Shown here in pieces: positions 56,584 through 57,351 of a stretch of DNA of 64,000 nt (positions within the stretch are counted from its first letter, which is position 1; each line of letters begins with the position of its first letter). Made by a program: the position numbers and the translations under genes. This DNA is from a virus (Duplodnaviria; Heunggongvirae; Uroviricota; Caudoviricetes). The notes under the pieces were generated by a model, which did no database searches, was not told the origin of the DNA, and saw only the letters and a list, made by a program, of their open reading frames with translations. Where the stretch lies: the IMG/VR virus record IMGVR_UViG_2534682157_000019. One strand, written 5' to 3'.

Positions 56584-56853
56584 ATGGTAACCATAATCTG
56601 GAAAGAATCCAAAGGTACGGCAAAAAGCCGCTATAAAGCTCGCAGGGAAGAACTTATTGCAGAGCGGCGCAGTAGTGAAAGACTGACGCGGAAGATTGCG
56701 CTAAAGATCTCTGGTTGCGTCAGAGCAGACAAAGCAGCATCACTCGGCAGCCTTCGCAACAAGAAGGCAGAAGAAGTCGAGCGCAAAAACAGAAGTACTT
56801 ATTACAAGGATTCAAACCCATTAGGAAACAAAATACATGCAGTTCAAAAATAA
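56584..56853 (+). CDS. N: N antiterminator (phage-21-like arginine-rich motif) with a replaced C-terminus
   Basis: MVTIIWKESKGTAKSRYKARREELIAERR... then ...VERKNRSTYY, after which the frame enters an AT-rich insertion and ends KDSNPLGNKIHAVQK. Confidence 0.7.
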   Translation: MVTIIWKESKGTAKSRYKARREELIAERRSSERLTRKIALKISGCVRADKAASLGSLRNKKAEEVERKNRSTYYKDSNPLGNKIHAVQK

Positions 56854-57267
56854 AATTGTACAGTAAACCACCGTATGGACTTATTGAGTATGCTTATGGT
56901 GAAAAAGACTATTTATGTTAATCCTAATCGCGGACAAAACAGAAAAGTATCTGATAGAAGCCTTACATCTCGAGACAGAAGGAGGATAGCGAGATGGGAA
57001 AAGAGAATAGCATATGCATTAGAAAACGGTATAACACCTGGATTTAATGCTATAGATGACGGTCCGGAATATAAGATTAATGAAGACCCAATGGACAAAG
57101 TTGACAAAGCATTAGCAACACCATTTCCTCGAGATGTTGAAAAAATTAAAGATGAAAAATATGAGGATATAATGCACAGAGTTGTTAACCACGCTCACCA
57201 ACGAAATCCAAATAAAAAATGGTCATAACCCACTTCGGTAGATTTTATTGTTTGGACTAACAAAATT
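56807..57267 (+). other. AT-rich 461-bp insertion interrupting the N gene
   Basis: Lies between the N 5' part (through TATTAC at 56806) and the displaced N 3' fragment (from 57268); contains the 117-aa ORF. Confidence 0.6.
56875..57228 (+). CDS. Hypothetical basic protein (up to 117 aa) inside the N-gene insertion
   Basis: ORF fills most of the insertion; K/R/E/D-rich; start uncertain, no clear SD. Confidence 0.35.
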   Translation: MDLLSMLMVKKTIYVNPNRGQNRKVSDRSLTSRDRRRIARWEKRIAYALENGITPGFNAIDDGPEYKINEDPMDKVDKALATPFPRDVEKIKDEKYEDIMHRVVNHAHQRNPNKKWS

Positions 57268-57351
57268 TACTACCGCAAGCCACGCAGTGAAACGGGTGTG
57301 ACTTGTGTTGGTCGCCAGAAAATAAAATTAGGCAGCAAACCACTTATTTGA
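57268..57351 (+). pseudogene. N: Displaced 3' fragment of the N gene
   Basis: Encodes YYRKPRSETGVTCVGRQKIKLGSKPLI-stop, which parallels the lambda N C-terminus (...WYSKPGERGITCSGRQKIKGKSIPLI). Confidence 0.65.

Follow-up and report, generated by a model that had tools for sequence, protein, structure and literature searches.

Why does the N antiterminator gene of a lambdoid prophage stop early in AT-rich DNA, when a second stretch that reads like the end of an N protein lies several hundred base pairs further downstream? The question is raised by positions 56584-57351 of a 64,000-nt stretch of DNA from the Caudoviricetes record IMGVR_UViG_2534682157_000019 in IMG/VR, hereafter called the window, in which all coordinates below are counted. 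A preliminary description, based on the letters alone, had interpreted this locus as an N gene interrupted by a 461-bp insertion that carries an open reading frame (ORF), and had suggested that N may be altered or inactive unless the insert is removed at the RNA level. The elements on which it relied are present, namely an N ORF with a phage-21-type arginine-rich motif (ARM) that continues into AT-rich DNA (56584-56853, 89 amino acids), a basic ORF of 117 amino acids in the intervening DNA (56875-57228), and a downstream fragment that is indeed derived from N, since 57268-57351 corresponds to the end of a phage-21-type N gene, separated from the N body by the ORF-carrying segment. Our explanation of the locus is a different one. 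The ORF contains nun, and the locus is very probably the start of the early-left (pL) operon of a Stx1-type lambdoid prophage, in which a phage-21-type nutL is followed by N, nun, and a scar that was left by a displaced N end (Table 1).

A Pfam search of the 117-amino-acid ORF returned no family (there is no Pfam model for Nun), and its identity came from PHROGs and the PDB. Read from the MVKK start, the product is identical to HK022 Nun at 103 of 110 residues over the full length (94%). It matches phrog_5632, 'Nun-like transcription termination factor', with an E-value of 9e-68 and 110 of 112 positions covered, and in the PDB it matches chain N of 6ALG, the cryo-electron microscopy structure of Nun with RNA polymerase (E=2e-68), and, through its ARM, the ARM peptide of 1HJI (E=1.3e-9). 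Megablast against phage genomes likewise identified the segment as the nun region of HK022 and its relatives. The Nun ARM is known to target the boxB RNA of lambda, and residues H93, H98, H100, K106, K107 and W108 are determinants of transcription arrest (PMC5386594). All six residues are unchanged in the window, where the C-terminal HRVVNHAHQRNPNKKWS is identical to that of HK022. The ARM RDRRRIARWEKRI is also intact and the same as in HK022, and the arginine-rich region as a whole (residues ~20-44) reads SLTSRDRRRIARWEKRIAYALENGI in the window versus GLTSRDRRRIARWEKRIAYALKNGV in HK022; its binding to lambda boxB is a prediction. We conclude that the ORF is nun, a lambda-exclusion gene carried by the prophage, and that its product is predicted to be an HK022-type transcription-arrest factor.

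The upstream gene encodes an N protein that matches phrog_271 ('anti-termination protein N-like', E=1.3e-24), shows ~92% nucleotide identity to phage 21 N, and scores 19.2 bits against Pfam N_peptide, for which the cut-off is 27.9. Its ARM, ESKGTAKSRYKARREELIAERR, is one residue off the phage 21 N peptide of PDB entry 1NYB (E for A, REELI for RAELI), and the ARM of mEp235 N is identical to that peptide. Two classes of C-terminus occur among N homologues, both of them after a common ...(I/T)YY. The phage-21/lambda class reads RKPRSEMGVTCVGRQKMKLGSKPLI, with SKPGERGITCSGRQKIKGKSIPLI as the lambda version, and the second, KDSNP-type, class reads KDSNPLGNKIHAVQKIKLYSK(L/P)PYGAY and results in an N of 101 amino acids. 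The consensus of the latter module is YYKDSNPLGNKIHAVQKIKLYSKxPYGAY, and KDSNPLGNKIHAVQK in the window is its start. The 15 residues at the end of the window's N, which had been considered a tail unrelated to N, are thus the beginning of a conserved N module: relatives encode complete N proteins of 101 or 112 amino acids whose C-termini begin with exactly these residues and continue with IKLYSK(L/P)PYGAY*, which is missing from the window's N because this stops at residue 89. The KDSNP-type end was found together with at least four N arms, being the phage-21 type, MTVVITYLADDNARNRRRARRQ, and two others (P0099 and P0119). In both classes, QK(I/M)KLxSKP is found at an identical offset (p=0.008 by shuffling), and this similarity is the best direct repeat in the region, with 84% identity over 25 nt. 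A Salmonella N allele, YYRDVNPLGNKIHAVQRMRLSSKPLI, bridges the two classes, and nun does not follow that gene. Across lineages, the last third of N shows ratios of nonsynonymous to synonymous substitution rates (dN/dS) of 0.04-0.45 with synonymous sites saturated, indicating that the module is under purifying selection. The KDSNP-type end is therefore a selected protein sequence, and not the product of read-through into junk. Relatives whose N is complete with this end are, in essence, the outcome that had been named beforehand as refuting an interruption of N.

The order of an N gene with a KDSNP-type end, nun, a terminator, and a vestigial phage-21/lambda-type N 3' end is widespread: of 5,426 complete E. 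coli genomes, 213 have it, as do ~60 viral contigs and the phages mEp235, mEpX1, PA28, Kapi1 and Stx1a-converting phages. GenBank and RefSeq already list N and Nun as neighbours in mEp235, mEpX1 and PA28. We read 77 IMG/VR loci that carry nun (loci are cited here by L numbers). Nearly all of them consist of an N of 101 amino acids, a 2-nt gap, nun, a terminator hairpin (CCCACTTCGGTGGGTTTTTT), ~18 nt, and ATTTAYTAC followed by the N remnant, and the joint, which is identical throughout the mEp235/PA28-type loci, is also the junction of the window. In the Stx sublineage, represented by PA28 and E. coli 2014C-3338, N has lost 1 bp close to its end and is thereby extended to 112 amino acids. The divergent loci L089-L091, whose Nun is ~70% identical, have the same order and, with a different joint, a decayed remnant at about the same position; in L089, an internal deletion has left only YYSKPLI* of the remnant, and of the 9-bp repeat described below only TACTAC is kept. 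L071 has an intact N–nun pair followed by a different 3' flank without a remnant. In HK022, HK75 and O276, only the last ~36 N codons (EVVRKNRSIYCKDSNP...) are left upstream of nun, and the HK022-type loci L065 and L067 still carry the remnant. Because terminal N codons persist and the remnant is found in these two loci, the HK022 state, with nun in place of N, is in our reading of the sequences derived from an ancestor that had both N and nun.

The junctions themselves also differ from the initial picture. The TTAC noted at both of them is part of a true direct repeat, although this repeat is 9 bp long and not 4 bp, and in mEp235 its two copies are perfect, each reading ATTTATTAC. The copies in the window are separated by 459 bp (56806-57264), and the distance from YY to YY is 468 bp, so that neither measure gives an insertion of 461 bp. 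Moreover, the repeat is not the left edge of the nun-linked DNA. The megablast alignment with HK022 sets in at window position 56772 (query base 373), where the N genes of phage 21 and mEp235 also begin to diverge (ERKQNRIYY versus VRKNRSIYY), and this point precedes the 9-bp repeat by ~30 bp. The block linked to nun thus comprises N codons ~65-101, nun and the terminator, and is no clean insertion after YY. Alignment with intact N genes, which had been proposed as a way to define the junctions, shows a block that brings its own N 3' end, and an N gene that is not broken by it.

That N ends early in the window is correct, and the cause lies in a single base and not in the segment that follows. 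The window has a run of five A residues where all 39 distinct related contexts have six. None of the 216 E. coli genomes that carry the 121-bp segment around this run (5,426 genomes searched) matched the window's version at 100%, and the top-listed matches were all 99.2% identical over 122 bp against the 121-bp query, with one extra base each. Over the 801-bp locus (56560-57360; 802 versus 801 bp), the closest relative reaches 99.9% identity, and its N has 112 amino acids. The deletion creates a TAA after ...HAVQK, removes IKLYSKPPYG..., and shortens the spacer of the nun promoter, P_nun, from the 17 nt found elsewhere to 16 nt. The shortness of the 89-amino-acid N is accordingly ascribed, on the alignments, to a private 1-bp homopolymer deletion. 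Two origins are conceivable for the A5 run, a mutation private to this prophage and a sequencing error in the homopolymer. There is a real chance, somewhat below even, that the latter is the case and that the 89-amino-acid N is an assembly artefact, the true A6 run giving the 112-amino-acid N of the PA28/Stx1 sublineage and thus an unremarkable protein. A difference of one base in a homopolymer, with A6 in all other copies and a 112-amino-acid N in a relative that is nearly identical at this locus, speaks for an error, whereas the prophage, over its whole length, reaches only ~97% identity with its best relative and is for that reason not simply the same strain. An artefact would be compatible with the explanation preferred here and is not a true rival to it. 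If the deletion is real, its consequences could be limited. In lambda N, the last 14 amino acids are dispensable, and when parts of the polymerase-binding domain are deleted, antitermination suffers mainly at distal terminators (PMC3526286), so that a real truncation might weaken N rather than abolish its activity. The truncation may then weaken processive antitermination, and the N-dependent read-through of this Stx1-type prophage towards Q, stx and lysis could fall.

The positions of P_nun were transferred from the -35 and -10 features of the 'nun gene promoter' in the GenBank record of phage O276, which has HK022 immunity. Both hexamers lie inside N codons (H-A-V for the -35 and Y-S for the -10), and they are kept in the divergent loci L089, L091 and L069. 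The work of King et al. 2000, which PMC5386594 cites, reportedly deals with a constitutive nun promoter. A terminator scan of the window reported no terminator directly 3' of nun (57229-57252), where most relatives have a hairpin. The nut sites are those of phage 21. The nutL of the window agrees letter for letter with boxA-L and nutL as annotated in phage 21, and its boxB match is the only one in the window, with 0 expected by chance; nutR differs from the annotated phage 21 nutR by one loop base. A search of the window for a lambda-type boxB gave a single match with 2 mismatches, which breaks the stem and is at chance level.

We propose that the locus would work as follows. The block of alternative N 3' end, P_nun, nun and terminator would have been joined into a 21/lambda-type N at the I-Y-Y codons. 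The 3' end of this N is the KDSNP-type allele, which always travels with nun, and not the phage-21/lambda-type allele. In the lysogen, Nun would be made from P_nun, within the last codons of N. Its ARM would bind lambda-type boxB RNA on the early transcripts of a superinfecting phage, and its C-terminus (H..H.H..KKW) would then wedge into RNA polymerase and arrest it. N, on the other hand, would antiterminate the prophage's own transcripts through the phage-21-type nut sites, and since these sites are of that type and there is no lambda-type boxB, Nun should spare them. The phage-21-type fragment after nun would be the leftover of the displaced N end, untranslated, and kept as a stretch of homology and a linker, ending in TGAGGTGAnnnATG, to which varied downstream genes would be joined by recombination.

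Several points weigh against this account. Antitermination by N proteins of 101, 112 or 89 amino acids, and expression of Nun from the prophage, are predictions. The indifference of Nun to the phage 21 boxB is a prediction drawn from published genetics, in which Nun reportedly does not exclude imm21 hybrids. With a 16-nt spacer in P_nun and a decayed terminator, expression of nun may differ from that in HK022. An 84-bp untranslated vestige that persists across nun lineages which are ~30% apart in protein does not look like a neutral scar, and its persistence would have to be attributed to refreshment by recombination, which is itself inferred. Finally, a target-site duplication could also account for the 9-bp direct repeat.

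The nature of the vestige bears on the first of the remaining alternatives. The 57265..57351 fragment has no start codon, and no ORF was listed for it on the + strand; read in frame, 57268-57351 codes for YYRKPRSETGVTCVGRQKIKLGSKPLI*, the C-terminus of a phage-21-type N. The 3' alleles of the remnants (…SKPLI, …SIPAYYD, …SKPLYEG and …SIPLI) are the same set as in intact N genes, and the genes downstream of the remnant, at least six different ones, are the set that also follows intact N, each of them attached via TGAGGTGAnnnATG. Singleton amino-acid changes occur both in remnants and in intact N proteins, the fragment being short for judging selection. In the simplest reading, the remnant would be a recombination scar that still offers shared homology, or a linker, for the exchange of modules. 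Alternatively, the fragment could be kept for a function, either as the right-hand homology arm for a double crossover of the N 3' end together with nun, or since it holds signals for the next gene. We regard this as possible, though a little on the doubtful side. It would fit the presence of the fragment in nun lineages that are only ~70% identical in protein, the way in which its alleles and downstream genes mirror those of intact N, the occurrence of the cassette with several ARMs, and the position of its end at the shared TGAGGTGAnnnATG junction. However, the remnant has decayed or has been deleted in L048, L051, L053, L071, L089, L091 and HK022 with nun being kept, and ordinary recombination at any shared sequence gives the same pattern.

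In a tentative extension of our preferred reading, which we consider somewhat less likely than not, nun would be a portable cassette, composed of the alternative N 3' end with P_nun, nun and the terminator, and bracketed by the near-universal central N region on the left and the retained N 3' end on the right, so that a double homologous crossover could bring it into, or out of, any 21/lambda-type N. Two pieces of the alternative N end, namely its H-A-V codons and the G-to-Y change that turns LGSKP into LYSKP, would do double duty, coding for the polymerase-binding tail of N while also supplying the -35 and -10 of P_nun. HK022 would go back to a phage with both N and nun, from which nutL and the first two-thirds of N were deleted. 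If true, this would explain why the cassette occurs with several ARMs, why the remnant alleles mirror those of intact N, and why the remnant survived across deep nun divergence.

Transposition of the nun cassette into N, with a 9-bp target duplication and an N likeness of the tail that is coincidental or convergent, is very unlikely. IS903 makes 9-bp target duplications, this element is located directly downstream of nun in HK022, and in mEp235-type copies the segment is flanked by the perfect repeat. However, there are no insertion sequence (IS) ends, and a repeat search confirmed that the ends of the intervening DNA are without terminal inverted repeats, as had been noted. In addition, the nun-linked block begins ~30 bp upstream of the repeat, the repeat corresponds to the conserved I-Y-Y codons common to both N 3' ends, the tail lines up with the phage-21 end without a shift in offset, the bridging Salmonella allele has no nun behind it, and L071 has N–nun without a remnant. 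A transposon in general was mostly rejected on the grounds that inverted repeats are absent, that the only ORF is nun, and that the 9-bp repeat represents shared codons. Least credible of all, to the point of being practically negligible, is a mobile element or group I intron with a small ORF that interrupted N and left it inactive unless removed at the RNA level: an N 3' end downstream, short flanking direct repeats and AT-rich, ORF-carrying intervening DNA would suit it, but the Rfam matches in 55800-58000, with E<=10 as the threshold, were only four in number, all at chance level, and included no intron or ribozyme, the 459-nt segment, in the folding test that had been suggested for a group I intron, folded no better than its shuffles (z=-1.04), the ORF codes for Nun, which is neither a transposase nor a homing endonuclease, the tail belongs to an N C-terminus that is conserved and under selection, and sequenced phages as well as 213 E. 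coli genomes show this layout. Both group I and group II introns were rejected, there being no catalytic RNA core in the Rfam scan.

With respect to known systems, HK022 Nun shows 94% identity across its 110 residues, has the same ARM, C-terminal determinants and promoter hexamers, and is likewise encoded at the start of the pL operon. The window differs from HK022 in that nun stands behind a complete set of N and phage-21-type nut antitermination parts, that the promoter spacer is 16 instead of 17 nt, and that the terminator is decayed, whereas HK022 has lost N save for ~36 terminal codons and uses put RNA instead. The N system of phage 21 shares with the window a near-identical ARM, identical nutL boxA and boxB, the conserved centre and the gene position. 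In contrast to phage 21 N, the N of the window has a KDSNP-type RNA-polymerase-binding end in place of RKPRSEMGVTCVGRQKMKLGSKPLI, and is cut to 89 amino acids. The closest in layout are mEp235, mEpX1, PA28, Kapi1 and the Stx1a-converting phages, which have the same junction at 90-98% nucleotide identity; they encode an N of 101 (mEp type) or 112 (PA28/Stx type) amino acids, and none of them has the A5 frameshift. Morons and boundary sequences of lambdoid phages are reportedly the subject of Juhala et al. 2000 and Clark et al. 2001. Like a moron, the locus holds a promoter–gene–terminator unit that is predicted to be expressed in a repressed prophage and lies at a junction of module exchange, and the CUS-3 record annotates a 'boundary sequence' at the N locus. 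Unlike a moron, the unit reaches into the 3' end of a gene for an essential regulator, has its promoter within N codons, and is bracketed by two diverged N ends.

Nun, N, the moron concept and phages with both N and Nun are thus already known, the locus is ordinary in kind, and only the 1-bp deletion is peculiar to it. In the searchable literature, we found no description of nun bracketed by two diverged N 3' ends, of the overlap by a promoter within codons, or of the N vestige upstream of HK022 nun, and older work (Oberto 1989; Weisberg 1999; Juhala 2000) may mention them. The bracketing, overlap and vestige are evolutionary details and not a new kind of system, and nothing here alters the known workings of N or Nun. 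What the locus illustrates is a defence gene embedded in the end of an essential regulator, with its promoter inside coding sequence, and apparently spread by ordinary homologous recombination.

Table 1. Features of the N–nun locus and of the nut sites, with positions in the 64,000-nt window.
Feature	Position	Strand	Remarks
N antiterminator gene	56584..56853	+	89 aa; phage-21 ARM, conserved centre, first 15 residues of the KDSNP-type C-terminal module; C-terminal end ...VERKNRSTYYKDSNPLGNKIHAVQK*
117-aa basic ORF	56875-57228	+	contains nun
nun gene	56896..57228	+	110 aa from MVKK start; in-frame ATGs upstream at 56875 and 56890
Left edge of nun-linked module, inside N	56772..56805	+	codons ~64-74
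9-bp direct repeat, left copy	56797..56805	+	ACTTATTAC; N codons T-Y-Y
9-bp direct repeat, right copy	57265..57273	+	ATTTACTAC; N codons I-Y-Y; start of vestige
Start of alternative N C-terminal module	56806..56853	+	KDSNPLGNKIHAVQK; cut short by frameshift
A5 run (A6 in every relative)	56846..56850	+	1-bp deletion; TAA stop at 56851-56853
P_nun (nun promoter), putative	56837..56864	+	-35 ATGCAG 56837-56842; -10 TACAGT 56859-56864
Decayed intrinsic terminator 3' of nun	57229..57252	+	CCCACTTCGGTAGATTTTATTG here versus CCCACTTCGGTGGGTTTTTTATTG in most relatives
Vestigial 3' end of phage-21/lambda-type N	57265..57351	+	IYYRKPRSETGVTCVGRQKIKLGSKPLI*; without own start codon
nutL, phage-21 type	56434..56474	+	boxA GCTCTTTAAC 56434-56443; boxB hairpin CTCTCAACCTAACCGTTGAGAC 56453-56474
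nutR, phage-21 type	54785..54827	-	boxA CGCTCTTTAACA; boxB GTTCACCTCTAACAGGGTGAGC

Some further features of the locus were observed. N, nun and the N remnant of the window are all in one frame (56584-57351), separated only by the TAA codons at 56851-56853 and 57226-57228. Because the frames differ in mEp235-type copies through indels, this shared frame is probably a coincidence and a by-product of such indels. In HK022 (L001, ~1500-1626) and O276 (L087, 700-820), the ~36 terminal N codons, EVVRKNRSIYCKDSNPLGNKIHAVQKIKLYSKLPYGAY, are located between putL and nun, and are unannotated. Upstream in the window, a strong intrinsic terminator, CCCGGCTCCAGTGCCGGG plus a T-run, follows the repressor gene (56002-56323 region), and a minus-strand ORF of 97 amino acids lies between the repressor and pL (56030-56323; phrog_3946, unknown function). 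Read-through from the repressor gene into nun looks unlikely in the window, unlike in the HK022 layout.

N–nun-like loci of other composition were also encountered. L077 (2155-2776) and L079 (2041-2629) have an N-like gene with, immediately behind it, a ~40%-identical Nun homologue that ends in ...VNHAHQRNPNKKW. The N of L077 (ending in ...GEVTARA) matches Pfam N_peptide, and in L079 the N-like and Nun-like proteins have similar N-terminal basic motifs (M.KI.YL..GK.NSK.RRY..RG). The HK022 lineage is therefore not the only one with N–nun tandems. In L083 (1772-2653), and also in L082, L084 and, interrupted by IS1, L081, a protein of 293 amino acids is encoded directly after an N with a lambda ARM. 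Its C-terminus, ...NPVNHAHQRNPNKKWS*, is the C-terminal polymerase-arrest motif of Nun, attached to a body that is otherwise unrelated. The protein is without a Pfam family, belongs to phrog_12139 (unknown function), and is followed by the HK022-type 3' flank of nun. It may act in exclusion or arrest as a factor distinct from Nun.

The N remnant of the window is directly followed by a highly acidic ORF of 28 amino acids (MEEEFEEFEEHPQDVMEQYQDYPDDYDY, 57360-57446), which matches phrog_16060 end to end and is conserved in phage 21. Of ral, the restriction alleviation gene, a remnant is present (57431-57530), in which ~100 bp have been deleted between TGGGCAAT direct repeats, so that the 13 N-terminal codons left are no longer in frame with the C-terminal end. 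A mere stub of ral is also what E. coli 2014C-3338 has at this place, and it is annotated as a Ral family protein of 23 amino acids. An ORF of 238 amino acids lies downstream of the ral remnant (57578-58294; phrog_2539, unknown function), and its central Cys-rich region shows weak similarity to endonuclease VII/HNH and Lar-like proteins.

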